A stretch of DNA of 53,059 bases, filler included, from Cladosporium halotolerans (GCF_011745625.1; 2 parts of 2 records of this genome joined end to end with filler, not necessarily neighbours in it); one strand, 5' to 3'; numbered from the whole stretch's first letter, positions 2,606-51,438 are shown. A program made the numbers and translations. Notes: generated by a model from the sequence alone, not told the origin.

Positions 2606-3324
2606 ATGGACAGAAAGTCGCTGATGTTCGTCACAACAGCTATTGGCTTTCTTACTACGGCCTCAGCCCATGGCAAGTTCGAACACAGCGGCTTATGGCA
2701 CCGAGAAGTCTCTGGTCAAAAACCGACGGTCAATGGCATCCCTTACTCTTCGCGCACGCATTGGATGCGAACCGCCAACTCAGCGCTTGGCGCATCCGGC
2801 TCGCCATGCCCGACCGCCGCGTTCGGCTCTGCGATCGTCAACCACACGTCGAACAATGGCCTTAAGAACTTATATGCACTGGCGTGAACCAGAACTCTGC
2901 AACGGGGAGTCCCACCCTCCACGGAGATATCGTGGCTATCAGCAACTACACGTCTATACTTACCTACCCGAACGGCCCATACAAGCTGTCTCCTTCAGAA
3001 GCCTCTTCCGCCTGGGCAGACTTGACGCTGTATACCAATGCTGAGAGTTGCCCGATGTGTGCGAGCGCGATTCGATGGGCGGGTTTCAAGGAGTATGTGT
3101 ACGGGACGAGTATTGAGCGGCTGATTGAGACAGGCTGGGGCCAGATCGATATCGCGAGCTCCGAAGTGTTCATGCAGAACTGGGATATGGAAACCAACAC
3201 AAGGTACATCCCAGAGATGTTGACGAACGAGACAGACCCGTTCTTTTTGTGGCAATTTCAGCCGGAGTATCCTTGTCCAGAGGCTTGCGATAGAAATTCG
3301 AGAGGAAGTTGCGAGAGCTCTTGA
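2606..3324 (+). pseudogene. Secreted-type cytidine/dCMP/guanine deaminase family gene, frameshifted
   Basis: Hydrophobic N-terminus, SPCPTAAFGSAIVNH, then a 1-nt frameshift near 2863-2866 (GGC CTT AA GAA CTT ATA TGC ACT GGC GTG AAC = G L ? E L I C T G V N). Downstream motifs PTLHGD and AESCPMCASAIRWAG. The usual HxE Glu is Asp. Confidence 0.75.
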
Positions 3325-3405
3325 TGGTGTAGATAGCTCTGGTGCCGAGAGATGAAAGCTCTCCTGACGAAATTTGGTCGTCCCAGGTCGTCGTCCTCCA
3401 AGTCT

Positions 3406-4875
3406 TCAAGTTGGTCTCGAGGTGCCCTGCTCCCCAGTGTGATCCTCACTTTCGCTCTCGCTTTCACTATCAAGCTCGAAGTCATGATGAGCCTCTGGTT
3501 CTGCATTCTCAGTACCATGATCGCCACTATCTAGCTCAGCGTGTAGAAACAATGTAAGGAGTCCGACATCGTAAGCGGATTTCAAGGCGCCAGCAATGAC
3601 GAAAGCGATCCAGAAGCGACCCGAGTTTGCCAGTGAACCGGTAAGGAGTGGGCCAGAGCTTTGACTCATGGTCTTGACAGTATTCACGATCCCCATAACA
3701 GCAGTGCGTTCGGCAGGAAGGACGATGGCCGAGAGGAAAGCGCTTCGCGGGGCCTGGTCCATGGAACTAAGAGTGGCTCTGAGGATTAAGAAGGTAATTG
3801 TCAGAGCGAGAGACTCTGGCATCGGGACGAGAGAGAGCAAAATTGCGCTTGGCAGGTGTGTGAAGACCATTGTCTTGACGAGACCGATGCGTTTCGCGAC
3901 TGACGATGCGAACACATTCCCGATGCTTGATAGAAATTGAGCAGCACCGATGATGCTACCCAGCTTGCCTTCTGGCAACGAGAACTTGCGCGAGATGAAA
4001 AAGGCGATGAGTGAGTTGGGGACCATGCCGCTGGCGAGCGAGTCGAAAAAGAACAGACAACACAGCTTTAGCAGTGTCTTTCGCGATGCCGGAGAGATTT
4101 GAGCAATTGCAGATCTCTTTTTCGCTGGAGCTTGTGGGGACCGCATATTCGGGGTCTGAAGGAAGGCTTCAGCCTCTTCACCCTCAGCTGCTTCTGATGG
4201 CTGCGTGCCTCTTTGAGATGGGACTTCGCACTTGTTGGTAAGCAGCATGGTGAGAGCAGCTTTGAGCAGTCCCACCACAGCGTAAATGTAGAAGACGAAG
4301 CGGAAAGAAGCTACTTCGCTCCAGCCTGCTCCCTGCAAAGATTGAGTGATCCATCCACTAGCTAAGGAACCGCCAGCTCCACCTAGAGTCCCAACAACGA
4401 CGTAAAAAGCGAAGATGTCTGACCTTGTTTTCTCATTTGATAACTGCGCGAGAGTCGATTCCTCAATAGCCCGAAAAGGTCCAATTTCGTTTCCACTAGG
4501 ACTAATAACACCGACTATAGCGGCAAACAGTAAGATCCAGTAACTGCTCATGGTAGCAAAGGCGAGACCAGAGAAAGTCATCAGGAGGCCGCCAGCGACA
4601 AGAATCCGGCGACGGCCCCAGGAATCCGCCACCAGGGTGAGCAGCAAGCTGACGCCGACATCTCCGACCAGTGTCAAGCTCAGAAACAGGCCAATCTTGG
4701 TGTCGGAATGTCCAAGCGCTGCGAAATACAAAGCGAGGACCAGTGTACTGGCACCGTAGGCAAACATGCGAATGCATCGGGTGAGCAGCAAGAGATGGAC
4801 ATCGCGGGACGAGGCAAGCAGGGTCGAGATACCTAATTCGTCTCCTAGCCATTTCGAAAAAGATCGGGACGCCAT
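3406..4875 (-). CDS. MFS transporter
   Basis: 489-aa ORF with about 12 hydrophobic segments and the MFS motif-A-like ADSWGRRR; also ISPSGNEIGPFRAIEES. Confidence 0.9.
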   Translation of the reverse strand: MASRSFSKWLGDELGISTLLASSRDVHLLLLTRCIRMFAYGASTLVLALYFAALGHSDTKIGLFLSLTLVGDVGVSLLLTLVADSWGRRRILVAGGLLMTFSGLAFATMSSYWILLFAAIVGVISPSGNEIGPFRAIEESTLAQLSNEKTRSDIFAFYVVVGTLGGAGGSLASGWITQSLQGAGWSEVASFRFVFYIYAVVGLLKAALTMLLTNKCEVPSQRGTQPSEAAEGEEAEAFLQTPNMRSPQAPAKKRSAIAQISPASRKTLLKLCCLFFFDSLASGMVPNSLIAFFISRKFSLPEGKLGSIIGAAQFLSSIGNVFASSVAKRIGLVKTMVFTHLPSAILLSLVPMPESLALTITFLILRATLSSMDQAPRSAFLSAIVLPAERTAVMGIVNTVKTMSQSSGPLLTGSLANSGRFWIAFVIAGALKSAYDVGLLTLFLHAELDSGDHGTENAEPEAHHDFELDSESESESEDHTGEQGTSRPT

Positions 4876-5358
4876 GGCGAAAGTATTGACGGGATAGGCC
4901 TAAGAGTCCGTGTGATGTCCTCCCAGTGGTGTTGTAGGAAAGATTATTGTGACTCCCCGGGTAATCCGCGGGGTCGCCGATTAGGGTTTTTATCGTACAC
5001 CGTATAGAGATGTTCAACCACATCGTAGACGAGGCACATCCTCCTCTGGGCTGCAAACATGTACTTCAGTTTTCGCTCACTGAACAATGCAAGAATATCA
5101 AGAAGTTTGTCGCTGGGTCATGCAAAAACACCTTGCGAATCAAGGCTAAATCGTCGGGATAATCCGAACGTTTTGTGTCTCGAGCCATGTCATTAAACAG
5201 GCAGAGCGGGACAAAACCAATACAAGAGAACAAGTACAAGAGCGACAAGTCAACGTTTTGTCGTCGTAACGCCAAAGCCGCAACAGGGTATCCAGCCATA
5301 TGTCCAGCCCAGGTTCAACGATTAAAAAGTAAACGGATCACCGATGTCCAACAGCTCA

Positions 5359-6866
5359 TCATAAAGCGACCCCAACCTCCCGCGTAACACAGTCATGACG
5401 ACTAATCTCCTCATCAGCAGCAGGATCTGGCAACGGCGTGATCATGAGACTTCGACTGTATCGTTTCGAAACCGTGGGAGACGTCTCGAGTGTATACGAG
5501 GGCGAGTCCAGTGTCGTGAGCGAAGAACTGGCTGAAAGAGCCCTATCCGTGAGAGACGGGCTTCTCGCAGAAATTCTGCAAAATTGCTCATCATTGCTGG
5601 TGACAAGCCGAATAGTAGACGGCGCTATGTGCCCAGCAGAGCTCGTTACGCCTGATGGCGACCCTGGGACTTGAGAGCTGGCGTTGGAAGGCTGCGAGCG
5701 GAGTGACACTTTGTCCGAGCCGGGAGAGAGCGTGCCCTGCCGTGAGTTGCTACGGTACGCCTTATGCGCAGTCAAAGGCCGCGACAAAGCAGAGCCGATG
5801 TCATTCAGCGTCTCCGAGCGAGCGTTGACCTGCATCGCCGGCGCTACGGCTGGTACGTGGCTGTTCCTGGACCTGCCCTTGTTTCCTTCGGCCCGGCGCT
5901 CTTCGACGATAGTGTTGAGCTCAAGGACTTCTTTCTCTACGTCAGAGTCTCCGTTGTGGCCATACGACTTCTGTGATTGGTTTGATCGTTTGCGCTGTAG
6001 GCGCGATCCTGCGCGTGGACGCTCGCTGATTGTTGAGTGTGCCGATGAGTTACTGGCTTCTCTAGCGTGATGCGTTAAAGACCCGGACAACGAGAGAGTC
6101 GATGGTGTTCCCTTTGATGACTTGTTGGAATCCATGAGTGTAGACGTGAGGGTTTGAGAAGAAGCATTCGATCTCAGCACAAGCGTCTCTTCACTCCGTC
6201 GAGCGCACCGTTGGTATGGCGTCTCGCGACTTTCTAGATATGGTTTGGTTGTTGCATGCTCGAGAAAGTGTTGTTTTGACTCCGATCGTTCGTGATCACG
6301 ACCGCGGGTCGCAATGCTGTGTGGCAATTCTGAGAGTGTCCTCGATGCCGTCAATTCGTATGGATCACCGAGTACGACTGGACCTAGAGGAACAGGCACC
6401 AGGCCTTGCGTGTGTGGTTTCAGGCCAGGACTCGGTCGAATTCTACGAGGAGCTTTTTCGAGTGTGGTCCCGGCTGACAGCTGCCCAAGCTCTGCTTCGT
6501 AGTCCGTGGGTCGGGGAAGTAAAGCTTCGACATTGAAGTCTTGCCCTTTTGACTGATCGGGCGAAGCGGACTGATGAGAGTCGCGAGGAGAGTCAACATT
6601 GGAGTACGATCTTCTGGTTGAAGAGGGCGTAATGGCCTTGGGAGGCGCTTTTGTGCCCGGCTGTTGTTGGTAGATGCCATTGGGAGCGGTAGCTGTTCAG
6701 CGTCAGCAATCTGTATTGGAAGCCATGGCTATCGCCGAGGCATACCCGCTGGGTGATCGTTGTCACGCTCACGTGGATACTCATCCTCCGTCAAGGCCGC
6801 ACAGCAGCACAGGAAGGAGGCCAGCCAACCTCTGTAGTGCCCACGGCGGTCAACGAAGAGGCCCAT
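5359..6866 (-). CDS. Fungal hypothetical Ser-rich protein, 2 exons
   Basis: ATG at 6866 (MGLFVDRRGHYRGWLASFLCCCAAL). Intron 6745-6693 (GTATGC...GCTGAC...CAG) splices in frame to a stop-free frame running to 5359. Contains EKEVLELNTIVEERR. Confidence 0.75.
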
Positions 6867-9142
6867 TGACCTCTAAGCTCACCGAATCATTTGGGTCCAG
6901 TGAGAATGTGAGCAAGCACTGTGGTGGACGGCAACGAGAAGATGATGAGAGCAGCAAAGGGAATTATGCAAGGATGTTGAACACGCAGCTCAGCGAAGGC
7001 GTTGAAGACAATAAGATAAAAGGTAGTACAAGAAGACCACCTGCATCAGATCCAGACAGGGCAAGGCACGAGCCCAAAAGTTCCAGCCAGCCGCACGGCA
7101 GTGCCAGAGCATGGCATATGTACCTCGCCGTCTCCGGAGACGCCGTCAAGAAGAAGCATCCTACGAAGACGCCAATCGCACCCTCCAGAAGGGCAACAGA
7201 CGAAGCTCGCAAGGCAGGAAAACTTACGGCAGAGGCGAAGTTTGCGAGAAGCACATGCAGCGGGAGGCGGGAAGCCAATGCAGCTCAATGATTGCTCCGG
7301 AGGCCCAGCTCGTGAAACAGAGCTCGACGCCAGCACGACGTGCCACGTCCCGAGCGTTGGGAAGGGGCGTGCGCGAGTGCACGACTTGGGAGCGATGGCA
7401 CGGCCAGGCAGGAAAGCGTTCGGCGGCCTTGCAGCGTGTCGAAGCGAAATATGGCGGGCTGGCGAATGGGCGCCCTCCAGCACATCGATACCACGCAAGG
7501 CCAGATACGGCGGGCAGGGCTAGCGTGGCAGGCGAGGATTGGTGTGTGAAGAGTCGTCCCACTCGGCCTATCGTGAGAAAGGTGCCAAAGTGTCTCCACG
7601 CGGCTGCCGGACGCGCCGACTCCGCATTCGTCTTCGCAGCCCTGGAGGGTCGAGTGTCGTGAACGGCTGGGGCCAGCGCAAGCGACAGAGCACGAGTGAC
7701 ACTAAGCCAAAAGCGTGAGAGCCCACGGTCGGGGACATCTCATTGTTGTCACGGCACGCCGTGGCACCTCATCAATTGCTCAGCAAGCTTCGATGGCGTC
7801 GACCCCAGCAGTCGGCACTGCACGCCGAACATGCGGGTGCAGACGAGCGATTGGCTGGGGAGTTAAAGTGAGCTGGCGTCAGCACTTGCGCAGGGCGGAG
7901 GGCTAGAGGAGCGGTTGGCCCACGGCTGTTGGCGTGTCATGACGGGGGGCACGGCATGTTGGGTGCCGTTGTAACGAACACAGCATGTGAGATGCGTTGA
8001 TACTGGACACTGCATGTCAGATGCAATGGTGATAGTGAACACGGCATGCCCTGTTACTGCCCTGTTACTGCCCACTCGGCGTGGTCTGAAACGTGAGTGC
8101 GACGGACGGCGAGCCGCCGGGCTGGTTGTGTGGTACGGCTGCCTCAGGACTCCTGTGTGTGTGCAGATGGTGCAGCACACCTTTCGATCGGCCGGGTTTG
8201 AGTTGTGAAGAGTCAGATTGGGTTGCGCGAATCAGCAGCCTGCTGGAGCGAGGTTTGGCTGTTTGCAGGCAGACGATCTGCAAAATGCCAGGTCTGATGG
8301 TTGCGTCAAAAACCTAACAGGGGCGGGTGATGCCGTGGTTCGGCGCATGCTAGACTCCTGCACGCAGACACCACTTGCCGTCTTCACACCACCGCGGGTG
8401 CCGGATGACCGGATGACTGGGACAAGATAGATTCGCAATGCTGCCGAGACTAAAGGCGTTGGCCACGCGGAGGCAAGAACACATAGACAAGGAGGCGGAT
8501 CTGCAGCCGGTCTGGCCGACGTAGTGTCTTGTCGGCGAATCAGCGGCCGTCATCTCCATACACACCATCGAAGACTGGGCGACCGATTTGTTATTTGTGG
8601 CAAATGCAGTACACGCGATGTGAATGGCCGACGGGGAGGAAGTCGCCCACAGCGTTGCGAAGGGACAGCCGCTTGATCGTCGGCGTTTCGTAAGGAGCGA
8701 TCAGTAAATCCGTGCATGGCAAGACGCTTCGAAGACGATATACCCACTACTACGGCCTTCCCGCCATGGGAGATGGATTTGAATACGGTTCGCCATACCT
8801 CCTGATTGACAAGAGGCCGAGCATGTATCTTTGCAATGTCCTGCATGGACCGCACTGGCGGCTGGCGTCCCAAGCTGTTAGAAACAGCCCGATCGTGGCA
8901 CATGTTTAACCTCCGATATTATCAACCTGAATGGGAGTGGCCTCTGGCAAACAAGATGAACCAAAACAGAGAACGCTGAAATTTGCTATGCTTTACAATA
9001 ACCAGAAGATATCGCTGATCCTCCAAACCCGAATTCGTAATCTATACAGCAGCCTTCGACTTTTCCGCTGAATGCAGCCTCGTAGGCAGCTCGTGAGTGA
9101 GACACACGACCCGAACCACCTCATTCAGCACTCTGCGAGAAC

Positions 9143-12100
9143 TTACATGCTCATCTTACTCCCCCTCCTGGCGAAAGAAGAAGACGTCATCCTCGGACTC
9201 GTCGGCTCGTCTCCGTTCCTCCCATGGGCAACCAATCCGCTCATCTCGTCCTTCGCAATCCCCAACTGCGTCTCACACACGCGCCTCCACAACCCTTGGA
9301 CCGCGCGCTGCAGCTCCGGACCCATCTCGCGGTTCATGAGCCCAACAGCCAGCGGAGAGAACGTCTTGACGTGCTTCCCAAACTCTTCGTCACGGAAAGC
9401 GACGTAGCCCTCCAGCACATCGATGACCACGGGCCGCCACGTGACCATGTTGCGCTGTTGGGTCTCCTCATCGAGAGCGATGTACGACGCCAATATGTCC
9501 TGGCACAGCGGGATGAGAGCGGCCTCTGTCTCCTGGCGAGACGCAGCACGGTCGTCGCTCTGGTCCGCGTACATGCGCAGCAGGATGAGCACGTAGACAC
9601 TGGCACTGCCACTCTCTTGTTTGAGGAGGTTGGGCGGCTGGCGCATGAAGCCCTCGCGGAAGAGGCGGGACCGTAGCTCGCGATCTTCGTTGAAACGTTT
9701 GGCGAAGTGGTAGGACTTCTTGAGGAGGGCCATGAGGCGAAGGAGGAGGTGTGAGGGAATAGAAGAGTAGACCGAGTCGTTGTTGAAGAGCTCGCTGACC
9801 GTCTCAATCATGAGGAGTTGAAGGACGCACTTGGTGATGATCTGGTTGAAGTAACGTCTGCGGGCCGCCGTGACGACGACGGGCGCTTGTTGACTCTGGG
9901 AACTGGAGCCTGCGGCGAAAGACTCCAAATCGGAGTCTTTCTGTCCCGGGTGCTTCGAAGGGGAGCTGTTGCGGTCGCGCTCAGTATGTGACTGCTCCGT
10001 CTGCACAGAAGCCCTGCGGTCGGAGCCATTGACTGGCACATCGGACGGCGTGTCTGCGGGCAGACCGTTGATGTTGAGTGCGTTCGACCCGGCCGCGACA
10101 GACGTGTGGTCGTCCACAAGCGATGTGCTGGTAAGACCTGAGGCAGTTTTCGGCACGTCGGGCGCGCCATTTGCGTAGGAACCGCTCTTATCGTACGAGC
10201 TCGACGTAGCAGCCGAGAACAGCTCTCGCGCCTCAGTCCTACCGAAAAGGTCGACAAAAGCCCCGACGATCTTCTCCCAATGTTCAGGGGTGAACTTCTT
10301 GACGTTCTGCAGGATCAGCTGCTGCAAGCAGTTGCTGCCGATCCTTGCCAGTGTATCGTTTTCTTGGCAAATGCAGAGTGCCAGCAAATCCAAGAAGCGG
10401 TCGAGCATGTACTCCAGGCTGTCGAAGAAGTATGTGAATAGCGTGATCATGTTTCGTAGAGCTTGGATCAGCGTGGTAGACAGCCACACAGACAGCTCTT
10501 CGTGGTTGATAGCTTCTTGGTTGATAGCTTTGCGGTCCTTGAGCACCATGAAGATCGGGTACAGCAGCTGTCTCCATAAAGTATCCCAGAACTCCCTTGG
10601 GAAATCCTTACCGTACTTTGTGAGAGTGTCGAATAGGTAGTTCAGTGCACGTGAGCGGACTTCGAGGTCTTCGCCGGTCATGAGTACGTCGTGGAAAGCG
10701 AACAACACCGGGAACCAAAATTGCTCCTCTGAAGTTTGGCGGCTCGGCTGTTTCGGTAGACCCTCAGCTTGTGGTGCATCTTTGCCGCCTGCGACGTTGA
10801 CCGAGAGAGGACATTCAGGTGTGCGGAGCATCTTGGGAACTGTTGATTTCAGCGTCTCGATGGCTTGCAGGCTCTTCTTCTGGAACTTCATGTTCTTGCT
10901 GAACTCAGTAAGGCAGACCACGAGATCTGCGAAAGCGCCTTGGCTGATGACCACGCCGAAGCGATCGTTCCACACTTGGGTGACGTTGTCGAACGCAAGA
11001 TTGACGATGCTCTCGTACGGCTCGCGAGCAGCCACAGTGAACACGCCCAGCATGGTGCGCCATCCAGATCTGATCATGTCGCCACGCGCCTGGATCATCT
11101 GAATGAGACAGCGGAGGACCATGTCCTTGACCGCTACCTGGGAGGCATTGCTCAGGATGTACTCGAAAGGCTTCAAGAAGTCTTTCTGGAACTTGAAACC
11201 TGGCAGCTCCTCGATCTCCATGAAGCGCATACTGAGCTGACGCAAGCTGTTGAGCGCAAAGTATACCACGTGTGTGTTGTTGTGGCAGCCAACGTCGATG
11301 AAATGCTGGCCAAGTATATGCCAGATGCTCGTCCACTCGAAACGCACACGCAGCATGTTGTACCCAGAGATCTCGACGAGCTTTTGCAGACTGTAAGTCC
11401 TCGGGCTGTCGCTCTGACCAGAAGACTGAATCTCCTGCCAGCTGACTTGGGTCAGAGCTCGCACGAAGTGCAAGATAGCGTCTCCTGACAAGTTTGCGGT
11501 GTTTGTGAATATCCGATCCACCCCGCGGATCATGTCTGCCGAGCGCGCGTCTTCTGCGATGTCTGCGTGATATGAGCCGCTCACCGAAGCCTTGGACGCT
11601 GGTCTCCTTGGTACTTGCATGCTCTTCCTGGATCCACTGGCCTGTGGGGCGGGCGCGAACTGCGCCTTCAGCACGTCGGGCACAGCGCCCTCTTCGACAC
11701 CGCTGGAGATGAGCTGAAATCTGTCAAGCTGCGAAATGCAGGTGAGTATGTCGCGCCAGCTCTCGCGAAGAAGGTTGCCCTCGGTGTGAGCAACATCCAA
11801 GAGGGCTCGTAGGGCTTCGACGTTCTTCGCCTTCATCTCCGAGAAATTGTAGAGATTTGTGCTCCGGCCCAAGGACGAGACGAAGGCCTGGCGAGGATCC
11901 TCAAGATCGAAAAGACAAGCAATTCGGATCGCAAGCTTTTGGCCTTCCGTGCAAAGACGTATGATCTCAATGTTCTGAGTCTCTTGAGCAGTGCCGCTCA
12001 GCGCGGTCAAGAAACTCATCCATACAGCGCTGAACATGGGGCCAACATGCTTGAAAGACGTCGCAGTCAAGAACCGTCCCTTTCCACTGGGCGCTCCACC

Positions 12101-28812: not shown

Positions 28813-31010
28813 TCAATAACGAGGCTCCATTATTGTCGGAGCGGAGAATTGTTTAGTCTCAAAGTTATAATCCATGAAACGAGATGTCGAAGCAACGGTG
28901 ATGCCAGGATACAGTAGTCTCACTGCTCGGGATCGCTCCTCATTGTCTGTCGCCGGAGACATCGGCAGGCACCCTACGTCTTCATCTGCGTGAATGGACA
29001 CATCACGAGCGAAGTACCATTGCGTCCACACCAGTCCTCGCATCATGCGATCTTCTGGTAGCGGAGGCATCTGGTCAGGAAATCCGTTGCCCTGTGCGAA
29101 AGAAGCAATGCCAGACGGAAGAGGGTACATCTGCTCAACGCGGTTGAGCAGAGCAATCAGTGCTTTCCAGTCTAATTTGTCAAAGCAAAGAAGTTTCTCA
29201 ATCATGCTGCAAACACTGTCGTCACTAAGCCTGTTACGCAGCTGTGAGATGCTTCCCATAAAGACAAGCACAATGTGCACGTAAGGGAGCAGGAAGCGAA
29301 GCGTATCTACACGGGATGCGCATCTTGTGATTTTGTCGAAGCAGCTGGCCCAGAAATTTGATACGCACAAGTATGGTGGTGGGCTCATTTTGCCAGTCGT
29401 AGCCGCGAAGTTCAATCCGTGGACGCTTTGCCCAGCAATAGTGTAGTTACGCCGTAAAACTGACCCATCCGGTCCTGGAAGAAGCGCAAAATCAAGGATT
29501 CGGAGCAAAAAGCTGTCTGGGGATCCGAAATCAAATAGAGCTGTGATATTTAGCATTGCTAGCGAGACGCCATAGACGCCGACTTTGCTGTCCAAGTGTT
29601 CGTCTAATGCTGCGAGAGCTGCGTTGCTGGCTCGCAGTATGGCTTCAGAACCCTTGGAAGCATGGATATTTGCATAAAGACAAATCATGCGATCTTCAAT
29701 CTGCTGCATTCTGTGGTAAACCGTTCGCCCATCGGAGAGGAAAGGTGAGAAAAGTCTCCGTAAAGAGTCTTCCAAGTTTGAACAACGTCTAGAAGACATC
29801 AGTGGCTGGCTGTACAAAGACAGTTGTCTCAGTGACGGAATCGATGACGACTGACGATAAGACCGTGTTTTGGCGTCGCATCGACGCCAATAGGCTGCGA
29901 CGGTTATCCATTTGTGCGCCACGCTAGCCCAAATGTTGCGCAGTTCTTGATTATCTTCGATTCCCATGCGGAAGCGGCTGAGATTGCCGAGGTACAGGTA
30001 CCAAGTGTCGACCAGCCCCGTCACAGTTTCCATAAGTGACGCCAGCAGCGCATAAGAGAAGTATATGAAGGACAGTAGGCGATCGCGCGGAGCTGACGTT
30101 CGATGCAACAGTAAATCCAGAATGGGTTGAATGCCATGATTCCACATGCGTCTTGGCAGAAGACACCCGATTTAGCATCGAAGTCTGCTGAAATGGTGGG
30201 TAGATATTGAGCTTGCACAAGAAAGTCGTGATGCCAGTAGAGTAGATTCACATGCAGGGAGGTCATGTGCTGGAGTTGCTTCTCGGTGAGTGAATCTTGC
30301 GGCAAAGAAGACGTTTGCGCGATAGAAGTTTTGCATGCCTTTTCCGCCTCAACAAGATTGGCGTATATGACTCCAGCCTGGGCCTGTACAGCTTGTTGCT
30401 CGTTCCAGTGGAAAGGAGATCTTGTCTGGATTGTGGCATTTTCATCCCCTGCATCATCTTGTATCCGCGACTGTTGTTCTCCTCTGAGGTCTCGAATTCC
30501 TATGTGCCGCTCGGGAGTGTCTATGAGTGCAAGACCATTTGGAGTGACATCGTTACTCGATGGCGGAGCGAAACAAGATCCAGTCGTCGTGTCTTCTCGC
30601 CTGTACGGGTGACGACGTGATCTGACGGGTGGTTTCCTTGATCCTCTTGTGCTTCGGAGCGGCATACTCGACAGAGATGGGGCTTTGGAATGATTCATGA
30701 CGGACGGCGTGTTGATCACCCATTGAAGATCGACAATCCTGGTGGCTTCCGAGCAACTCGCGGCGTCGCATTCATCGGCCGGCGTTTCGGCTTGTCCGGA
30801 CTCAGATCGTTGTGTCATGATATTATCGTCGAATCCGTATTGGTTGAGGAGGGAACACTTCAATGGTAAGTTCAAATATCGCGAATAGGCACATCTAGTG
30901 TATGCATGGTATGAGCATTCGTCGTCGGGGGATCTGCCAGGGAAGCAGCAAAAGTGACCGTAGGTATCTTCGCGCAATAAGATAAGACTGTCAAGAACAC
31001 GCCAACGCAT
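28813..31010 (-). pseudogene. Est1/SMG6-type DNA/RNA-binding (TPR-like) domain gene, frameshifted near 30160
   Basis: VIYANLVEAEKAC...LHVNLLYWHHDFL in frame 1 continues as LPRRMWNHGIQPILDLL...FIYFSYALLASLMETV...DTWYLYLGNLSRFRMGIE...PLPEDRMMRGLVW in frame 2. This is the block order of fungal Est1-type proteins. Confidence 0.7.
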
Positions 31011-31029
31011 GTCGCCGGCTGATGGCCGG

Positions 31030-31487
31030 GCCTTTTATTAATTCTTTACTACTAATTTTTTTACTTTAAATATATATATATCTCTTTATTTATTCCTATT
31101 ACCCTATCTTTATTTACCTTTGTAATTCTTACTTAATATTTTTAAATTCACTATTATTCTTTATTTCATTATTTTATTCCTTATCCTTCTTTTACTATAA
31201 TTATTTTCTTAATCTTTTTAATATCTCCCTAATGTACTCTACTTCTACATTTAATTCTATTCTATTTCTCCTACCTTTCTTATTATAAAATATTCTATTT
31301 TAATACCTTTTCCCACTTCTCTTATTTTCTTTTATTTTAAAAAAAATAAAATTATTTCCTCGTTCTATCTTACTTTTTATATCTTATCTTATATATTTTA
31401 TAATTCTAATTCCAATTCTAATTTCTATTTCTTCCTATTTTATTTTCCATTTTATCTTTAATTTCATCTTCTATTTCACTTTCAAGA
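31030..31487. repeat. Extremely AT-rich, pyrimidine-skewed, probably RIP-erased repeat relic
   Basis: Almost no G on the + strand. Sharp boundaries, with GGTTAGGG at 31488. Confidence 0.7.
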
Positions 31488-34400
31488 GGTTAGGGCTCAA
31501 TTTCGCACTTCTCAAAGCAAAAGAATAAAATGAGGATCCTTATACCAATCGTAGAGCTAGCCCTGCTACTCGCACTGCTTGTATCGCGCTTCCTCCTCCA
31601 AATCTGCTCTCCTCTCCTAGCCAGTCAAAGTAATCCTCCATGTTCTTGAACTTCCGCTCGAACTGCTCGGAAAGCCACCCTAGCCCTTCAACGCTCTCGA
31701 AAACTCCGAAGCAGAGCGGGAGTACAATGTCTCTGTATTCGCAACCTCTACCACCCCTGCTTCCCAGCTCCGCTTGTTGACAGATCGATTGCGGATTCAG
31801 ACACCAGAAGCAGCTTGAGTACGCCTGCAGCCATTTCCGCCCTCGTTCTTCGTGCCGCCGCCTGGCTTTGTTCCTTTCTTCAAAAACGTCGAAACGCCGT
31901 GGGCAAGTCGAGAAATCATGGTTCCAGTCCTGTCTGGCTGTCCTGCAGAGCAAGCACGTTCCATTCACACTCGCTAGGTCCAGACGATACTGCGCTAGTT
32001 CTGTATGGGCCCGGAGCTTTTCTTGCTGGATGAGCTGGAGCCCTGTGTGTGTGTTTTCCTGCTCGACCTTCTCCACGGTTTCGATCATGTCCTGATGGGC
32101 CACCCTGCAAATGTCGCAAGGCACATCTTCGGGCATGCACCATCTTCGATGGCGAGCGACGTCCAAGTAGTCACTCAGGGACGTCCGGTAGCATTGTTTG
32201 CCCAGTAGGTATCGATGCGCTGCTTCCTTGTCGTGACGCTTCCGAAGTGTCGGGTCATCTCTGTAGTTGTTCGTCCCGCGCGGCTCGTCCAACGGAACAT
32301 CTGAGACCTGAGGCTGCCAGGTTGCGGGAAGTAATACCATCGAATATGCACGTTTCCCGTCCCGTCCCGCCCGACCAGACTCTTGGGCAAAGATGACCAA
32401 CGACTCCGGCTCGTCTACGTTCATTACGAGTCGTACGTGCGGATAGTCGAACCCTTCGGCTAGAGCAGTGGTCGCCACGATGTAGGGCGTCTCGGGAGCT
32501 TGTATCCAGCGATCGAGTATCTGCTTCTTCTCCTCTGGCGTCCCACTCTCGGCAGTATACGAGCTGCAACCGAGTAACTCTGCCAAATCGTCCGCATCCT
32601 TGCACGTCCGAACGTAAAGGATGACTTTGTCGCGAGAGTGATCGAATAAGCCAGACTTCGTCCAAGCGTCTTCGACCTCGGCAACAGCCTGTTCGAGTAG
32701 GCTTCCTTTGTGAGCATCAGCCTTACGCACCATGTAGAGAATGTTCGGTCGATTGCTCGACGCTCTGATTACCGTGGGGTGATGCAGATAATTCCTCTCC
32801 TCGAACTCTGCCCGCATAGATGGCGGAAGAGTGGCTGTGAGGTAGACAAATTGAGTTCTTAGGCTCCGGATTGCTGTGAGCTCGACGATGCTAGGTCGGT
32901 ACTCGGCCGCAATTACGGTTAGGTGGCACTCGTCGACCACGATCCGATCGAGCTTCTGCTCTGCTATAAGCCTCCGAGTATATTTGATAAAATCCTTGGA
33001 CGAGGCGGCTTCGGCGCTGACCAGAACCAAGGCGGCTTCTCGAGTCTCGCCTAGATGCCACTCTAGATGGTCGATGCTCAACTCTTTTATACGCCGAAGC
33101 ATATCTCCGTGGAGTGAGACGAGCGGTACGATGAGTATCGTTATCCTAGCGTTAGCTAGGGTACACGGGAGCATGAAAAGCAAGCTCTTCCTAGCTCCCG
33201 TGGGTAGGATGACGACGACCTGCTCATTCCACGACATGATTGCAGTGAGAGCTTGCGCCTGCTCGGTCGATTTCCAGCCTGCGTCCTTATTGCCATATAG
33301 TTTCTTTACGCCTCCCAGGAGAGCTTCTGTGGACTAAGGCTTGCGAGGACGATAGATGCCCTTGGCGACCCGTTTCGCTAAGCGAGACTCTTGCCCGACT
33401 CTCCCACGTTTCTTCCTCTTGGGGATCGTCTCCACGCCCCAAAAGTCCTGCTATAGAGTGGAAGCCTGCAGGCCCATCCGCACCTTTCCATCCTAGAGGT
33501 TGCTGAATACTACTCCGGCTTGGTTAGCATACGCGCGGTTCACCGTCCGCGTCTTGTGGTTGCGCTAGTCGGTTATGATTCGGATGATTGGAGCGGTCTC
33601 TTCCCCGTCTTCGTCGCCTTCGTCTGGATAGAAATACTCGATGTGGCCGGCGAACTTCGTTTTGACGATGGCGACCGAAATCTGCCTCTAGTTTGCGACG
33701 TGAAGTCGTGGCACGCACGCCCGAACGCTTGCCTCTTCTAAGTAGCGACTCAGACGACCCTCGGGCCACACTTTTCCATCCTTTTCCTAGAGATAGGGAG
33801 AGAGTAAGGACCCAGGCGAAGTCTGCCGCAGGAATCTCTCTCGTAGCGGCAGAACGTAGACCATGTAGTCGAGCATTAGTTCCGCGATCGGATTGGCGAG
33901 AAACCGCACGTTCTCTTTGTACGTTCCGCTTTGCTGCTAGCCTTTGTAGTATTGGACGTGAACCATCACACGGTCGAATCGAACGATGATAGACCGCCGT
34001 CGCTGCGTGTTGCGGTATGTCATCGAGAAGAACTCACTCTCTCGCACGGGTTGTCCGCCGCTAATGTGTATCAAGACACTGAGCCGCTTTAAAAACTCTT
34101 GCACGGTGGCCTCGTAACTGGCCGTTGCGCTCTCCCTCCACGCCTATCCGCCGGGCGACTAATCGCTCTCGACGATGAAAATCCGACACAGTTGTTCCGA
34201 TCGTTTAATTGCTTTCGTCAAAGCGGTTTCTGTGCCACTAAGAACCGTCGCGTTGTCTCTGTGCTAGGTGAAGTTCCAACGGACGGTGTCGACGTTGACG
34301 CCATCTTTGAGGAGACGAGGGCTCATTCGACGGAGGCTTTGGAGACCGAGCATCAGATCATCGTAAAGGAGCTGATAACACTCCTGATACTCGGATGTAA

Positions 34401-36394
34401 GTAGAGTTGGGATTTGATCTATCCGGAGTTCGGTGTTTTCATAGGTCAGTACCTCTTCGTGCTCATCCTAGGACGCTTCATGAGTTCCGACGCTTGCACC
34501 CGACACTTTGAACAACAACAGACGCCATCTAAGGATTTCTCCCATCGGCGTCTCGACGGTCTGCTGGAGATACTGGTCGCAGTAGGCTTTCACCAGCTTG
34601 AGCGTCTTCCCTGAACCCTGCTGTTCTTTCAGAGCGCTGTCGTAAAACACTAGAAGTTGTACAATCCAAATGATAGCCGAAAGATTGCTGTTGAAGTTCC
34701 CGGGCTCCATCCAACTTTTTGTGGACGGCTTTATGCTCAGCATGGCGCAGAAACTCAGCAGCGGCGATTCGTAGCGGCGAGCACCGGTCGCGTGGCAGAT
34801 GATAAGCATCCATAACTGTAGAAGGCGGTTTTTTAAATCGCTATTGTAGCCTTCTTCATCGTCATCGTCGGTGCCTGTTTGCTCATTCATACGCATTTGC
34901 TTTGCCATCTCGTGTATGTCTTGCCATACCACAAGCTGCTCTTCTGTCGCCTGGATGATATCCTCCGGTCTCATCGTCTTGCCATCGTTATCCGCTGCCG
35001 GGCTGAAGTGATACTCGTCGGGCGCGACGACCCTGCTAAAGTACGAGACGAATCGAAGCGCCATTCCGAAATACGTTACAAGACTTTTCGGCCCTTTGTA
35101 CGGATCGAACGGTCGGGTCTTTCCTGTCAGGTCGACTTGCGAAGGCTGGAAGCGGCTGAGAACGACTCGGCATTGATAAGTCAGCATGCAGTCGGGCCCG
35201 TCGAAGCACAGCCTATGGGCATCTCGTAGGAGTGACTCCATCGCCTCGGTTATTACGCGGAGATCACTCTCATCCCCTAGCCGGGGAACCGCCATCGCTG
35301 TTCGGATTTCGTCTTTTTTGAGATCGTTGATATGATCCGCAATGCCCGTTTCTCTGAGCCAAGGGACTACGGCAGAGACATGGCCACCGAAGCCGTGGAC
35401 TCGATTGGCATCTTCGGTAGCGTCATACTTTGCTTGTCGGACATCGTTTTCCTGAGCGCGGAAGAAGTCGTGTTTTGCTTCTGTTCGACTCTGATTGCAA
35501 CCGCCAACGTTTTGACAGGCGACTTCGAAGTATCTCTGCCAAGTGGAAGCTTTGAAGAGCCGTTGGCATGCATGGTGTTCGGTCCAAATCTTATTTTGCG
35601 CATGTCTTTGTTTCGCTCGGGAATCACCTCCGCGTTTTTGCCCGTTCACCCATTGATGGTTCCGCTTACAGTGCTCTTGCATTCTGTACAGAGTACGACT
35701 TATGTATTGGCATCTGTCGCCTTGTAAGTCGACGCCGTCGCATCTCAGGCCATCGAAATACACTGGGATGCTAGGAATCGGAGGCTCAGTTGGCAATGGA
35801 TAAACAACATCAGCATGTATCTTGGCGAGCTCTGCGCATCCTTCGACTCTCGAGACAAAATCGTTTCGCTGTTCAATACTGAGGCGCTTGTGGTGGGTCT
35901 GGAGATGCGTCTTGGTATGTGAAGGTATAACAGCGTATTGACAAGGTAGGCAGATCAAAATGCGGTGCCGAGAGTCAATTTCAAAGATACGTCGAAAATC
36001 GTCCATCACTCCTCTGACTATGAGATATGCATTTTTCCAATATGGCACAGAGTCTGCTCTTGTTATAATCGGTATCGGCGCTTCCCAATGCAGCTATGTG
36101 CAGTATTGTCTCGCGTCTGTCATTAAAGTGGCGTGGAAGGAGTCGGCTGTAAGTGCCTAGGGCGCTGTGTTGTGGGGAAAAATCCCTACCTGAACCCCAA
36201 ACTCGTCTATCTGCAGTCGATGGCAGCACACCATTGCCGCACCATCGTTCCGAATATTCGGCTGCGATCGAGCGTGCGGTGAGCTGGTTCTTATCGCTAC
36301 GCCCAGCTGCAAATTTAGGCATTTGAGTATCGTGAAAGCGAAAAACACGTCTCAGGTAAAGCAAAGAACTCAACTCTCTACTTCCAACCCTAAG
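31488..36394 (-). mobile_element. Putative tyrosine-recombinase/RecQ-helicase element (telomere-linked helicase family), RIP-inactivated
   Basis: Bounded by GGTTAGGG (31488) and AACCCTAAG (36386). Flanked by an AT-rich relic and a beheaded Trk gene. Carries a single large RIP-damaged gene. Confidence 0.6.
31540..36048 (-). pseudogene. Zinc-finger (DUF3505-like) + tyrosine-recombinase-like + RecQ helicase fusion, ~1500 codons, 11 in-frame TAG stops
   Basis: ORFs 34468-36048 and 31540-33237 are in the same frame and the gap reads through with TAG stops only. Motifs: ICLPCQYAV...HLQTHH, CQY...EHCKRNH, PWLRETG, HISGGQPVRESE, QYYKG, AN*RQISVAI, *RNHKTRTVNRAY, LPTGARKS (Walker A), VVDECH, LTATLPP, QESGRAGRDG, and RQC-type Cys cluster. 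Confidence 0.9.
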
Positions 36395-36917
36395 GGTTCA
36401 TTTACGTGAGAATTCAAACAACTCGACTCGAGTTTGTCGTCCTCTATTGTTAGATCGACAGGAGACACAAAAGCCGGGAGAGAACACGACCGTCTTCTAC
36501 CACATCAAACAGCAACTCGCTTATGATCTGTGGTGGATCGCCTTATCATGGTTGCTCATCTGTATCGTGGAGGAGCCGCAGCTGAACGAAGGCGCAGCCG
36601 GCTTTGACATCCTTACGATTCTTTTCGAGGTCGTATCTGCTTACGGAAATTGCGGTCTCACCTTGGGGGTACCGGATGACTCTTACGCTCTCTCCGGTCG
36701 ATTCCACGTTTTGAGCAAATTAGTCATGATCGGCGTGATGCTACGTGGTCGACATAGAATTCTGCCAATGGCAACTGATCGCAGCGTTTTATTACCAGGT
36801 CAAGGTCTTATGGAGCAATCTGATCGCGATTGCAACACCGGATTGATGGAGAACAGGAATGCAATAATATCTCAAATACGAGAGGAAGAGCGAGGATCTC
36901 AAGCTGAACATGTATGA
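36393..36917 (+). pseudogene. C-terminal fragment of a Trk/TrkH potassium (cation) transporter
   Basis: HIKQQLAYDLWW, LFEVVSAYGNCGLTLG and SKLVMIGVMLRGRHRILP. No upstream exons; the frame begins at the AACCCTAAG junction. Confidence 0.85.
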
Positions 36918-37437
36918 CTCACGCCAGACAGACCAAAACACAAGCATGTAGGCGTCCATGATTCGATCCGCATGAAAACAAATCAAGCCATATAGCTTTT
37001 CCTATAATTGGATACTCTCTTGGTTTATGATCGACCGAATTTTCGTGCTCTGCCAGCTGCTTGTCAGGTCATACTTGGAATATTGATCCGTTCGAGATTC
37101 GAGAGCATTGCCAGGTCTGCAGCTTGGCCTCGCAAGGGAATCTTGAGTAGTGCTCACCTGTTCAAACGCGGAGCATACGCGTTGCTTGTGCCGCACATAG
37201 GTCACTGTTTCATGTCACGACTGTCCCTAGTTGCACAGCAGGTCATCTTTTCCTGCGCGAATCCATATCCGATGTGATTTCATGACATAGAGCAATAACC
37301 CAGGATTGCACCACTTCACTAGTCTGGATTTCTTTCTCCTTTGTTGTTTACGAGAAAGTCATGTTTTGTGAGAAATTGGCTGACAATATGTAACATTCCT
37401 TATGCTTGATACGACGTTGCAAGTTGTAAGTATTCAC

Positions 37438-38840
37438 CTAGCGACTATACACCGGGCATTGCGACGATACGTTAATGGCATCTCTGCTCTCGTCGTGGGC
37501 GATTTCGTTTCGCCGTTGTTCTGGGAACCCGCCATGCTGACCATCGACGGAACCTTGTCTAGCGAGCGCAATTTGTATCGGGATTCGAAACGAAAAGGTT
37601 GACGTGGTCGATTCGCTACTGCGGCACTTCATTTCCAGCCTGAGATTATGTCTTTGCGCAAGGAAAGGCGTGTAAAATGTCGTCGAAAATGCGGAAATTT
37701 GACCGAGCGTGAGCCTTAGATGCTCGCTTGTGTGCCAGTGACTTTCGAGATCTCTATTGGCGAGATCATCGTCCTGCGCGCGAGTCCAGCTGCATGCCTG
37801 GTCAACGGGGATTGCACCGTTGTGCATTTGATTTGTGGACACCCAGTCACGTAATACTAGTTTCGCGGTTCGCGGCGGAGTATTCGTTGAGCGTCGGCCC
37901 AAAAATGGATCCTCGGAGACCTCTGCAAGGGACGGTATGTGTTCCATTCGAGCGACAGCAATGAACGTATGTGTCTCGAGTGTCCATGTCATTGTGATCT
38001 CTAGATCCCCTGGTGTTTCGATCTTCCCCGGCATGACATTGAGTAGGGTGATTAGGTCGACGGTGACGGTGACGTCCGCTCCTTTCGAGTCACCATGATG
38101 AGTCTCAGGTCTCAATTGCAAGACTTTCGGCTCCAGCATGGTGATGGTGAGTTTCTTGTCGAAATGATCATGGTGGGTTCTGCCGGACCACCAATTCTTG
38201 ACCTTACCATTCCTCAGGACTCCGCTGACCGTACAGATGTAGTCGCCAGCAAAGTCGTCTAATGCTATGGGGGGAGGCATGGCGGACACCGCGTTGATAG
38301 CGCGGAATTGCGCAACACGGAGAGACACCACGCGCTGAGCGTCGAAGATGCATGCTGCGACTTCGTACGCTACACATGCAGATGTTCTTGCACTACTGCT
38401 GTTTGCTCTGGATATAGGGTGCCAATCCCGAGGGAGGGTGGGTAGCATTCTCCATGACCTGGTTGTGGAACCTGGAACGAGAATGGAACATGAAGACAAT
38501 CTGTGTCTTCTGCATTTGGCGATTGTAGATTGGCTCGAGTTTCAACAAGTTCCAGAAACTGGGGATGTCAGCAGGGACCGATCAGGGAGTTCCATTTGAG
38601 CGCACCGGCTGCTCCATGTTGCGCATCTCCACCAGACCAGTCGTCGAAACACCAAGAGTGATACTCGTTCTCATTACTCCTTTGCCACTGTCAGAATCAA
38701 TGCTTGTCAGCGACTGGGAGGGTCTAACCTTTCAGCGTAATCTTCAGAATACTTGTGTCGCGTGCAAGATCCTTCGGGACTCGGACAGAGCCGCGCACTT
38801 CGCCCGGCAGGACGAAGATTGGCGACAATTCATGTTCATC
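37438..38840 (-). pseudogene. Degenerate arrestin-like hypothetical gene
   Basis: VPFSFQVP...PPSL and CVAYEVAA...PPPIALDDF...TTFYTPFLAQRHNLRLEM...FRIPIQI lie in different frames. The 5' structure is uncertain. Confidence 0.35.
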
Positions 38841-49510: not shown

Positions 49511-49859
49511 TATATCTTATATATACTTCTTAATCAACTTACTAAACTATGGATTTATACTCGCTTCAAATTCGATAAATTAAATCTTGATCTATATCTT
49601 CCTTCTTTCTAATTACTTGATATCGTTCATACCAATACTTTACATCCGACCTAAATCGGTTTCCTTTATTTCTTCTATTACTTTTATTTCGACTTCGATA
49701 CTAATACTTGATAACTTTACTGTTCACCTGTTTTCTTATTATTTCCATGATCTTTACACCATCTTCATCTCTCCTCCACCCGGCCTGTCACCCATATGAA
49801 TGCATGTACCAACTCGCTACCACCCTCCTGTCCTACCGCCTCCGATCCTAAAACCTTTA

Positions 49860-51049
49860 TCGTCTCTTCTACTTGCTCGATCTTTGCTCCACGTCGCACC
49901 ATTCGCCTCTGCCATTCGCCTTCTGCTTCGCTATCCGTGTCCGTACTGTCGCTCTCGGTGTCACTCGCTTCGTCTGCTTCTTTCACTGTCGATCTTGCTG
50001 CTACCATCATTCGTTCAAACGCCCGGTCCTGCCTGCGATTGAACTTGTACGGCGGGCTCTTCCACGAATGCACTCGTCTCGTGCGTACGAAAAACGTCAC
50101 GATCTGCTGCCAATACCGACCCTGCCTTCTGATCTCGTCGCGATTTTGGTATGGTTCTAACGGACGGTAAACGTTCTGGTGCGCATTCCGTACGGATCGC
50201 CTCGAACCGTAACATGACTCCGCTGCGGGATACCGCGTCCTGGCTGGCCGACGCCAACTCGCCTGTCGCCTCCCAAACCGCTGCTGCTGCTCGCTCGTTG
50301 TCGTTCGCTTCGTTCTCGCCTTCTGCTATCTCTTCGTCGACGGTGGGTTCTCTTAAACATCGTAAAATGTCTTTGCGGTCGCGACCCTCCAAACACGGGA
50401 TCCACCCTGTCCGTCTCAACCACAGATTGACCTCATTCGTCTCGCCTGGCCGTATCGTGTCGTCTGATCGGATCCTATCGTAATGCTGTGATGCCTGCTC
50501 CCACGCCTGCGACCAAATCTCTTCGTCTTTACTTTGTCTGACGCTTCCTTCCCTTTGTTCTTCGCCGGATCGTACCTCGAAATACTGCGAATGCTCTTTT
50601 TGTACGAAAAATCGCTGGCATCGTACCTGTCGGCAATTCTGCAATATTTGACGGTCGATGTCTTCTTTCTTCAATATGCCTGACCCGCCTCGCTTCTGAC
50701 CGACCGAATGTCCATGCATCTTCCGCCAATGTTCTTTGATAACATCCATGTTGCGGCAAACGTACGCACGTTGTCCTTCATCCAACTCGCACTTCACACC
50801 GTCCGTTAACACGGGCAAACCTTCTACAGCTTCTTCGACATATTCGGGTATTTTGAATTCGCTAGAAAATCGCGCGATACCATGCCATTGCTCGATCTCG
50901 TCCGAAATCCCTACGGCTTGCTTTTTGGGCATCCTATGTTGCCTATTTGTTAAATGACCCACTACTTGCCTCGGCCACACCGCATATCGACATTCCTTGC
51001 ATACGACTACCTCCCACTCGGTCAAATGCTGAAAATGGCTGCTTGCCAT
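49860..51049 (-). pseudogene. Truncated second DUF3505 / telomere-linked-helicase-family gene (N-terminal zinc-finger part only)
   Basis: VVCKECRYAVWP...HLTNRQH, KEHWRKMH, CQRFF and NLWLRRTGW. A +1 frameshift at ~50187 continues as RPLEPYQ...RYWQQIVTFFVRT. No recombinase or helicase part remains. Confidence 0.8.
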
Positions 51050-51438
51050 TGTTTCGCTTCGGACGCGGTGTATGTACGGTTTGACTGCTCGGTGCCGCTT
51101 TGCTAATTGCGGGTATGAAACGAATGGGTGACAATCATTTGCGCTCCCGTTTAATGTCCTTCTCTCTGGCATATATATTTACACATCGCTCGTCCTGTCT
51201 CTGGGAAAATCGTTTGTCTGTAACAATACTAATCTCCCCTGCTGTGTCTCGCGTGGTGTGATACTTCTCATTGGTGCGCTTGTCTAATCCTTGCAGTTTG
51301 CGACTGTGTTTACCTCGATTCCAACGACGATAAGTTGACGATTATACTACTTATGACAGTGCTTGCAACACAAAATTCACTTACATTGATGTGCACTACA
51401 ACATATCAAAATTTGGGCGGAATTGGCGTTACTCCAAA

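Follow-up and report, generated by a model that had tools for sequence, protein, structure and literature searches.

For over 20 years, telomere-linked helicase (TLH) genes have been recorded at the chromosome ends of fungi, where they serve as landmarks of subtelomeric heterochromatin. In the available parts of the published accounts, their products are composed of two N-terminal C2H2/OrsD zinc fingers, a "TLH domain" of ~250 residues defined by Rehmeyer et al. (2009), and RecQ motifs; conservation of the TLH domain extends from Magnaporthe, Metarhizium, Fusarium, S. pombe, and Ustilago to Monosiga, and the domain is given no function (2024 Fusarium TLH preprint). Here we analyze a gene on the minus strand of a 53,059-nucleotide stretch of DNA from Cladosporium halotolerans (GCF_011745625.1; two parts of two records joined with filler), which we call the window and number from its first letter. 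The gene is a disabled copy of a TLH gene, and the fold predicted for the middle domain of its family places that domain, with good support, in the tyrosine recombinase/topoisomerase IB superfamily, nearest to Xer and Cre.

An earlier note on this stretch, made from the sequence alone, had remarked that DUF3505-RecQ genes are usually described only as telomere-linked helicases. The literature agrees, to the extent that its available parts present the region only as a TLH domain of unknown function: in those parts, the words "recombinase" and "integrase" never appear in the 2024 Fusarium TLH preprint, nor does "recombinase" in a preprint on Botrytis (bioRxiv). We found no literature that connects tyrosine recombinases with TLH genes or with DUF3505 proteins, in a search that left subscription papers (including the 2009 TLH-domain paper) and domain databases other than Pfam outside its scope. 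The recombinase link of the TLH domain is apparently unreported, prior notice elsewhere being possible.

A recombinase-like domain between zinc fingers and helicase

On translation, the minus strand from 31540 to 36093 is a single frame, as the earlier note had read it; its 1517 codons include 11 internal stops, each of them TAG and all confined to codons 542–920 (33334–34470). The frame read through with X at each stop is referred to as protein P0001. Residues 1–1483 of an intact homologue, P0002, align to 36006–31543 at 79% identity (tblastn) and, because P0002 aligns over its full length from there, the start is placed at the ATG at 36006; with the terminator at 31540–31542, the pseudogene occupies 31540–36006. 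Pfam places an OrsD domain (PF12013, former DUF3505), a double zinc finger, at residues 36–147 (35653–35988, minus strand; E 2.5e-21), DEAD at 944–1092, and Helicase_C at 1151–1246. A phmmer search of the PDB matches residues 929–1330 only (the RecQ-type helicase core, 32104–33309, minus strand) to RecQ5 (8.6e-25), RecQ1, E. coli RecQ, BLM, and WRN, the RecQ5 and RecQ1 matches having E ~1e-24. The core is followed by a Cys-rich C-terminal region (31543–31962, minus strand), in which C1380, C1383, C1397, C1428, C1431, C1438, C1451, and C1461 are nearly invariant in an alignment of 28 sequences. With OrsD fingers, TLH domain, and RecQ motifs in one protein that can be aligned over its full length to 27 homologues, some of them named telomere-associated recQ-like helicase, the gene is by architecture and homology assigned to the TLH family. 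The recombinase-type residues do lie between the zinc fingers and the RecQ core, as had been claimed. The helicase retains the motifs DECH, TAT, and QESGRAGRDG but is incomplete in this copy, because the Walker A glycine before the lysine is lost, codon 968 (33190–33192) being AGG (Arg) here and GGT/GGA in relatives, so that the family's TGAGKS has become TGARKS.

The TLH domain itself (residues ~647–883; 33445–34155, minus strand) was modeled by AlphaFold2 without templates, twice and from different first sequences and alignments. Model 1 covers residues 391–901 of P0002 (60-sequence alignment; mean predicted local distance difference test, pLDDT, 81.9), and model 2 covers a natural 245-residue fragment, P0144 (88-sequence alignment; pLDDT 86.7; predicted template modeling score 0.81). 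In Foldseek searches of the PDB, XerH and XerA are the top matches of both models, with a best E of 0.038 (probability 0.98) for model 1 and, for model 2, 2.9e-3 for XerA and ~8e-3 for XerH (probability 0.99–1.00); these are followed by Cre, Flp, lambda integrase, topoisomerase IB, and ResT. The structural check that the note had recommended thus returns recombinases at the head of both lists, at E above 1e-3. The domain is mixed α/β, with a three-strand sheet where the recombinase fold expects it (model 2), and in the models the helices surround this antiparallel sheet as the fold demands. We regard the fold as established. The region before it (residues ~425–646; 34156–34821, minus strand) is mostly helical at high pLDDT in model 1 (model residues 1–222); the alignments to Cre and XerH reach into this region, but with poor root-mean-square deviation, and it is possible that it represents a core-binding-like part. 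The nearest named clusters in the ESM Atlas are Phage_integrase, NDC10_II, and ResT-TelK at 0.83–0.85, below the 0.9 level, and serve as leads only. We take MrpR, SroF, and QRICH1 to be recombinase-derived; for MrpR, the Pfam name "MrpR N-terminal core-binding domain" agrees with such an origin.

Conserved residues accompany the predicted fold. The candidate catalytic set consists of Arg I (R684, 34042–34044), a lysine in the β2–β3 hairpin (K717, 33943–33945), Arg II (R803, 33685–33687, preceded by W802, whose codon is a TAG stop here), His III (H846, 33556–33558), and the nucleophile tyrosine (Y855, 33529–33531), all on the minus strand and all exactly where the earlier note had put them, in the peptides GGQPVRESE, QYYKG, HVAN-stop-RQ, and H-x8-Y. 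Among 28 full-length sequences whose homologues are 33–79% identical, R684, K717, H846, and Y855 are each found in 28/28 and R803 in 27/28, the exception being a gap or deletion. None of the five varies in 60 sequences, and conservation is at least 90% across 88 sequences reaching down to 21% identity (as it is for E687, N695, R700, Y715, R730, P749, and W776) and at least 95% in 73 full-length relatives that lack the helicase, in which the equivalent of Y855 is Y810. The check on intact homologues that had been proposed therefore comes out in favor of the set, and together with the fold matches it bears out the suggestion that a recombinase-type catalytic domain is concealed between zinc fingers and RecQ core. 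Judged from these alignments, the set is more than chance. The family's box I (G-Q-P-x-R-E-x-E-x-x-S-x-T-W/Y-x-N) resembles the R-x-x-E...L-x-W-x-D of Xer and Cre, its box II reads W-R-Q-x-x-V-A-I, and its last motif is N-H-x-x-x-T-x-N-x-A-Y. In hhalign comparisons, for which a small recombinase profile was built from 15 bacterial and phage sequences, the runs with the catalytic part and with an 86-sequence domain profile place Arg I (weakly, on the box-I arginine), a hairpin lysine, Arg II (with the R of HxxR), His, and Tyr on matching recombinase columns, in order.

The family is large. A word-indexed search with residues 400–930, in which 7999 candidates were scored, recovered 124 proteins at E ≤ 1e-3. 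Most of them share the OrsD and RecQ architecture at a length of ~1480 residues; the genera represented include Cladosporium, Hortaea, Friedmanniomyces, Botrytis, and Fusarium, and some of the proteins bear the name telomere-associated recQ-like helicase. When the 511-residue middle piece of P0002 was searched exhaustively against 1.84 billion representatives, 1653 proteins scored E ≤ 1e-3. RecQ domains are present in 22 of 40 distant representatives, 10 have only OrsD and the middle domain (~830–980 residues), and 8 have neither; just one cluster was named among 20 distant representatives (Claviceps, hypothetical protein). A search with one of these 10 helicase-less proteins, P0233, gave 305 proteins at E ≤ 1e-3, most of 850–890 residues, from Alternaria, Aspergillus, Penicillium, Pyrenophora, Parastagonospora, Talaromyces, Hortaea, and Pseudogymnoascus, some of them encoded on megabase contigs; the largest helicase-less 90% cluster has 62 members, from Pyrenophora tritici-repentis. 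These proteins end ~50–90 residues past the tyrosine, in a basic tail, and their box II reads Y-R-H where the TLH branch has W-R-Q. The OrsD-recombinase module thus occurs by itself, the helicase being an addition in the TLH branch.

Three unusual proteins were encountered in these searches. P0118, a 2423-residue gene model of Fusarium oxysporum with Helitron_like_N and a PIF1 helicase, also matches the TLH middle region (37% identity) and may be a gene-model fusion or a real association; the available parts of the Botrytis preprint describe TLH copies flanked by Helitron-like elements. P0114, a 2042-residue "telomere-associated recQ-like helicase" of Ilyonectria, has ~500 extra N-terminal residues that resemble a second partial middle domain, and its main copy has a deletion that removes the W-R-Q box. 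P0201 (906 residues), probably a chimeric gene model, has a HisKA domain and also matches the TLH middle region.

Inactivation, copies, and surroundings of the gene

The inactivation of this copy was compared with two relatives on metagenome contigs, L018 and L019, which have uninterrupted frames and are ~75–76% identical to the window in DNA. At the 11 stop sites these relatives carry TGG at 7 and CAG/CAA at 4; because loss of Trp and loss of Gln both amount to C-to-T changes at CpA, on either strand, they bear the signature of repeat-induced point mutation (RIP). Sites at which CA/TG is conserved in L018 and L019 and TA stands in the window number 18/92 (19.6%) in codons 540–930, against 7/171 (4.1%) upstream and 10/128 (7.8%) downstream (17/299 combined), whereas other C>T and G>A changes are equally common inside the stop-bearing segment (38/319) and outside it (107/860). 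Ancestral TGG has become TAG at 6/10 positions in the segment and at 0/20 elsewhere. These comparisons indicate that the 11 stops arose in a mild, sharply local RIP-type burst over 33334–34470 (minus strand), to which the Walker A Gly-to-Arg change is to be added.

The trigger of the RIP episode was presumably a duplicate at another place in the genome, either partial or diverged; self-blastn found no internal DNA repeats in the window. A second OrsD-type open reading frame (ORF) lies on the minus strand at 49798–51058, inside a low-GC stretch at 48–52 kb. At 49.9–51.0 kb it is 27–29% identical to the N-terminal 240–410 residues of the family, with helicase-less P0253 as its best match, but it spans just positions 7–367 of 865 in the profile of the helicase-less family, and no recombinase-like part is detectable downstream of it; it is possibly a truncated or RIP-degraded relative. 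We considered this locus as the RIP partner and rejected it on its low protein identity, its partial span, and the lack of DNA similarity.

Contigs of four public runs (X7, X9, X5, and X2), placed on 29500–38500 at a likeness of at least 80%, place the gene in a multicopy unit. Summed contig depth in X7 is 211–854 over 31.6–36.4 kb, against ~130 in the left flank, and the multicopy depth persists up to the 36122–36422 bin. The 5′ leader of the unit (36007–36450, minus strand) ends where other copies diverge, at 36441 in X5 and X2 or at 36453 in X7. The 3′ trailer (31485–31539, minus strand), defined by the loose ends of copies, ends at ~31475–31485; these loose ends fall at 31534 in X7 and X5 and at 31485 and 31475 in X9. 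One X9 contig is 99% identical to the window from 31485 on (5 differences over 31485–32083) and different before that position, a second diverges before 31475, and the two continue in two different ways. The unit thus measures about 4.97 kb, made up of a 0.44-kb leader, the gene, and a trailer of ~55 bp. In another subfamily, contigs L020 and L021 have ~4.9 kb in common, with one exact start base in unlike flanks and an end at the stop codon. L020 also holds two family genes of different subfamilies head to tail (356–3838 and 5060–9952), ~1.2 kb apart, and L021 holds the Cys-rich C-terminal end of another family gene (95–811) just upstream of the unit.

Two candidate signatures of insertion were examined and set aside. 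The six bases TCTATT occur on both sides of the unit, but such words fill the AT-rich tract beside it, and they are not accepted as a target duplication. A single TTAGGG at 31490 and a single CCCTAA at 36388 were likewise rejected as inverted ends, being 6-mers only, with the left one not conserved in L019.

The neighbors of the gene in the window encode a Sec7 guanine nucleotide exchange factor, an isocitrate/isopropylmalate dehydrogenase, an AAA ATPase, a bicarbonate-type transporter, a phosphatidylserine decarboxylase, and a SET protein. Two long minus-strand ORFs of 452 and 337 amino acids (28813–31034), on the left side of the AT-rich tract, match no Pfam family, and the region is conserved at ~84% in X7 as single-copy DNA.

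Proposed mechanism and competing explanations

We favor, with a probability of roughly 0.55, the following explanation: the gene in the window is a dead TLH copy from a family in which the TLH domain is of the tyrosine-recombinase/topoisomerase-IB type, the proteins are two-enzyme proteins, and the gene forms part of a Crypton-like self-propagating unit. Intact family members would then join a recombinase to a helicase. The recombinase domain would form a 3′-phosphotyrosine link at the equivalent of Y855 in order to cut and rejoin DNA, with the transition state stabilized by R684, R803, H846, and a hairpin lysine; unwinding or branch migration of the joint would fall to the fused RecQ motor, and selection of the DNA to the N-terminal OrsD zinc fingers. 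With less certainty, we posit that the gene and a leader of 0.25–0.45 kb constitute a compact unit of ~4.9 kb, that the unit may spread among chromosome ends, and sometimes to internal sites such as that in the window, by recombinase-mediated integration, and that the widespread helicase-less OrsD-recombinase family may be a simpler relative of it. In favor of mobility are the multicopy depth and discrete ends of the unit, the exact common start of the L020 and L021 copies in unlike flanks, the head-to-tail neighbors on these contigs, the location of the copy in the window among housekeeping genes beside a truncated TrkH gene and with no telomere repeat in 53 kb, the passage of the X7 left-flank contig into unlike sequence at 31031, and the differing copy numbers between Botrytis strains.

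Results on mobility, catalysis, and detection weigh against this explanation, and we give them here with the rival accounts on which they bear. The claim of an autonomous integrase-helicase mobile element goes further than the data, which provide a multicopy ~5-kb unit with sharp ends and a nontelomeric copy adjoining a truncated gene. The left-flank contig of X7 passes into unlike sequence at exactly 31031, but no contig of the four runs joins 31031 to ~36450 as an empty site would, the right flank (36724–38500) being uncovered in all 4, and the 30-letter continuation of the X7 contig does not occur in the window at up to 3 mismatches, a search that is insensitive at ~16% divergence. Nor were terminal repeats, a target-site duplication, or a circular junction found for the unit; of the empty sites and circular intermediates that the note had suggested looking for, neither came to light. 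The sharp end at the stop codon could mark where coding selection ends, and TLH genes are known, in the available parts of the literature, as subtelomeric repeats able to spread by ordinary homologous recombination.

In a rival account that we consider unlikely, though it merits serious attention, the protein is a host telomere-repair enzyme. A recombinase/topoisomerase-like domain and a RecQ motor would act together on telomeric recombination intermediates, as a helicase that brings its own strand-passage or resolution activity in the manner of RecQ-Top3 or the telomere resolvases, copies would spread only by subtelomeric homologous recombination, and the copy in the window would be a fossil chromosome end. 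The tie of the TLH family to chromosome ends in many fungi and a choanoflagellate, reported in the available parts of the sources, is as this account would have it, and so is the presence of ResT among the fold matches and of ResT/TelK among the nearest Atlas clusters, the latter a lead only. The flanks of the unit are also in its favor. Adjoining the 3′ end is an AT-rich tract of ~450 bp (31036–31484, unstranded; GC 0.376 and GC skew -0.356 in the 31001–32000 bin) with almost no C on the sense strand of the gene, which is abruptly joined to unique DNA. By blastn (L019 5708–6889) the tract is homologous, junction motif included, to a minisatellite of the purine-rich 12-mer GGAAGATGAAAT type that lies downstream of the related gene on L019, a contig that terminates in the telomere-like TAGGGTT. 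It is this homology that opens the second reading, of a former chromosome end, and the tail in common with L019 is equally compatible with a relic chromosome end and with an insertion. On its 5′ side the unit directly adjoins a TrkH-type cation transporter gene on the plus strand (36501–36804, in the ORF region 36360–36914), of which only a C-terminal fragment is present (Pfam E 2.5e-28, profile positions 398–497 of 502); no match to the N-terminal part was obtained among the 22 ORFs between 25.6 and 30.9 kb. This arrangement suggests that the window may preserve an end at which TrkH was broken and healed with a TLH subtelomere that was later internalized. No (TTAGGG)3 with at most 1 mismatch occurs in the 53-kb window, which need not reach a chromosome end.

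Other observations count against this account. TLH genes vary in presence between strains, with 14 copies in Botrytis cinerea Vv3 and none in B05.10 and Sl3 (available parts of the Botrytis preprint), and inactivation of RIP type has struck the copy in the window, as RIP on TLH genes is reported in Nectria in the part of the literature available. The abundance of the helicase-less family, with 62 members in one cluster of P. tritici-repentis, is a pattern typical of selfish repeats and not of housekeeping genes, and units with exact common ends lie in unlike flanks.

A second possibility, which we consider quite improbable, keeps the recombinase fold and dispenses with its chemistry: the domain would be a non-catalytic DNA-binding module, as in Ndc10 or the Crypton-derived animal proteins, and the helicase would be the sole enzyme. 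NDC10_II is indeed among the nearest Atlas clusters, as a lead only, and the catalytic set has its irregularities. The first His of H-x-x-R is missing, as the earlier note had conceded: three residues before R803 stands Ala in the window and Ala/Ser in the closest relatives, and H798, five residues before R803, is conserved in just 21/28. Some active members of the superfamily carry Lys or other residues at this position. The identity of the catalytic lysine, a weak point of the favored explanation, is ambiguous, either K717 or a K/R nine residues later. By DSSP, model 2 has strands at 67–74 and 85–90 with K76 (equivalent to K717) between them, right after strand 2, and hhalign pairs not K717 but the less conserved K/R at the start of strand 3. 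The segment with H846 and Y855 is modeled at low confidence (pLDDT <50 in model 1 and 56–65 in model 2). Set against this possibility is the 90–100% conservation of the five chemistry residues in sequences as distant as 21% identity and in two architectures; given that conservation, loss of catalysis is not expected.

It is also conceivable, although very unlikely indeed, that fold match and motif are artefacts of a generic helical arrangement and of chance residues. Sequence methods alone barely detect the recombinase link. Pfam finds no family at E ≤ 1 in residues 150–940 of P0001; Phage_integrase, DUF3435, NDC10_II, and GCR1_C are absent from the Pfam matches of 40 distant members (E ≤ 0.01) and of 22 members (E ≤ 10); and the phmmer search of the PDB with P0001 gives helicases only and no recombinase. 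The hhalign comparisons remain under the usual thresholds: the whole 511-residue profile aligns in the wrong register (Prob 0.4%), the catalytic part with 55 sequences reaches P 0.021 (Prob 2.3%; global mode gave nothing), and the best run, with the 86-sequence domain profile, reaches P 0.0017 (Prob 15%), below HH-suite's own significance. Neither model has a Foldseek match at E ≤ 1e-3, 2.9e-3 being the best value, and both are AlphaFold2 models built without templates. Yet the two models, from different first sequences and alignments, agree with each other, the domain has its sheet in the expected place rather than being simply helical, and the conserved residues follow the recombinase order and spacing (H-x8-Y).

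That the TAG codons are read through, by an alternative code or by adenosine-to-inosine editing (UAG to UGG), and that this copy is functional is hardly credible: all 11 stops are TAG and 7 replace Trp codons, a pattern that such editing could reverse, but 4 of the 11 replace Gln, which editing cannot restore, and because TAG stands here for both Trp and Gln no single reassignment can rescue the frame, while the stops belong to a wider local CpA>TpA excess that has also struck nonstop sites (18/92), the Walker A glycine is lost as well, and the frames of L018 and L019 are uninterrupted with TGG or CAG at the stop sites.

Comparison with known systems

The recombinase fold and the intact catalytic set of the family provide a testable chemistry, in which TLH proteins could combine the unwinding of DNA with its breakage and rejoining. 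If correct, the favored explanation would account for the movement of TLH genes between chromosome ends and to internal sites, for their variable presence from strain to strain, and for their attack by genome defence, and it would bear on the reshuffling of subtelomeres, home of many pathogen effector and secondary-metabolite genes. The helicase-less sister family (305 matches, annotated as DUF3505 or hypothetical) may be an unclassified group of transposons. More tentatively, and at somewhat less than even odds in our judgment, all TLH genes, including fission-yeast tlh and rice-blast TLH1, may encode an active tyrosine recombinase and a RecQ helicase, and they and the helicase-less OrsD genes would together form an unrecognized superfamily of recombinase-driven selfish elements, whose helicase branch has specialized in chromosome ends.

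The closest described relatives are the TLH genes themselves (Magnaporthe TLH1, those of Fusarium and Botrytis, S. pombe tlh1/2, Ustilago UTASa, and Monosiga), which in the available parts of their descriptions have the same architecture as the gene in the window, are multicopy, and have RIP reported; the copy in the window differs from them in being a pseudogene with no telomere repeat within 53 kb. The helicase-less OrsD proteins of Pezizomycotina ("DUF3505 domain containing protein" or "hypothetical") are like the protein in the window in their OrsD and recombinase-like domains and are 22–25% identical to it over ~800 residues, but they differ in having no helicase, a basic tail, and Y-R-H in box II.

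Cryptons resemble the TLH unit in being compact, with a single large recombinase-encoding gene and without visible terminal inverted repeats. To integrate, active Cryptons recombine a short sequence at their terminus with a target that is nearly identical to it (PMC9977147, available part); at the located ends of the TLH unit, no short sequence common to terminus and target was found beyond chance. TLH proteins are set apart from CryptonF by their domain content, with OrsD fingers and RecQ in place of GCR1_C, and because GCR1_C is absent from every Pfam scan the TLH protein is not of CryptonF type. Starship captains (DUF3435) are, like TLH proteins, fungal proteins of tyrosine-recombinase fold tied to mobile DNA. 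No Pfam scan contains a DUF3435 match, for which reason the TLH protein is not a Starship captain, a distinction already drawn in the earlier note, and the TLH unit measures ~5 kb without cargo, in contrast to the tens to hundreds of kb of Starships.

We know of no evidence of hairpin fungal chromosome ends. The telomere resolvases (ResT/TelK) and the type IB topoisomerases belong to the same catalytic superfamily, act on DNA ends or topology, and are both among the fold matches, at Z 5.1–7.3, lower than Xer and Cre. ResT is, in addition, reported to possess an ATP-dependent unwinding activity (PMC5388405, available part). Recombinases of the Xer/Cre type (XerA, XerH, XerD, Cre, and IntI) are 9–18% identical to the TLH middle domain, which has no PF00589 match and, unlike them, lacks a His three residues before Arg II and carries a long acidic insert between Arg II and His; the TLH protein, of ~1480 residues, differs further in the fusion of zinc fingers and a RecQ helicase to the domain. 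What appears to be new, if the models are correct, is this recombinase-helicase fusion within the recombinase-bearing elements of eukaryotes, for which we propose both catalysis and mobility.

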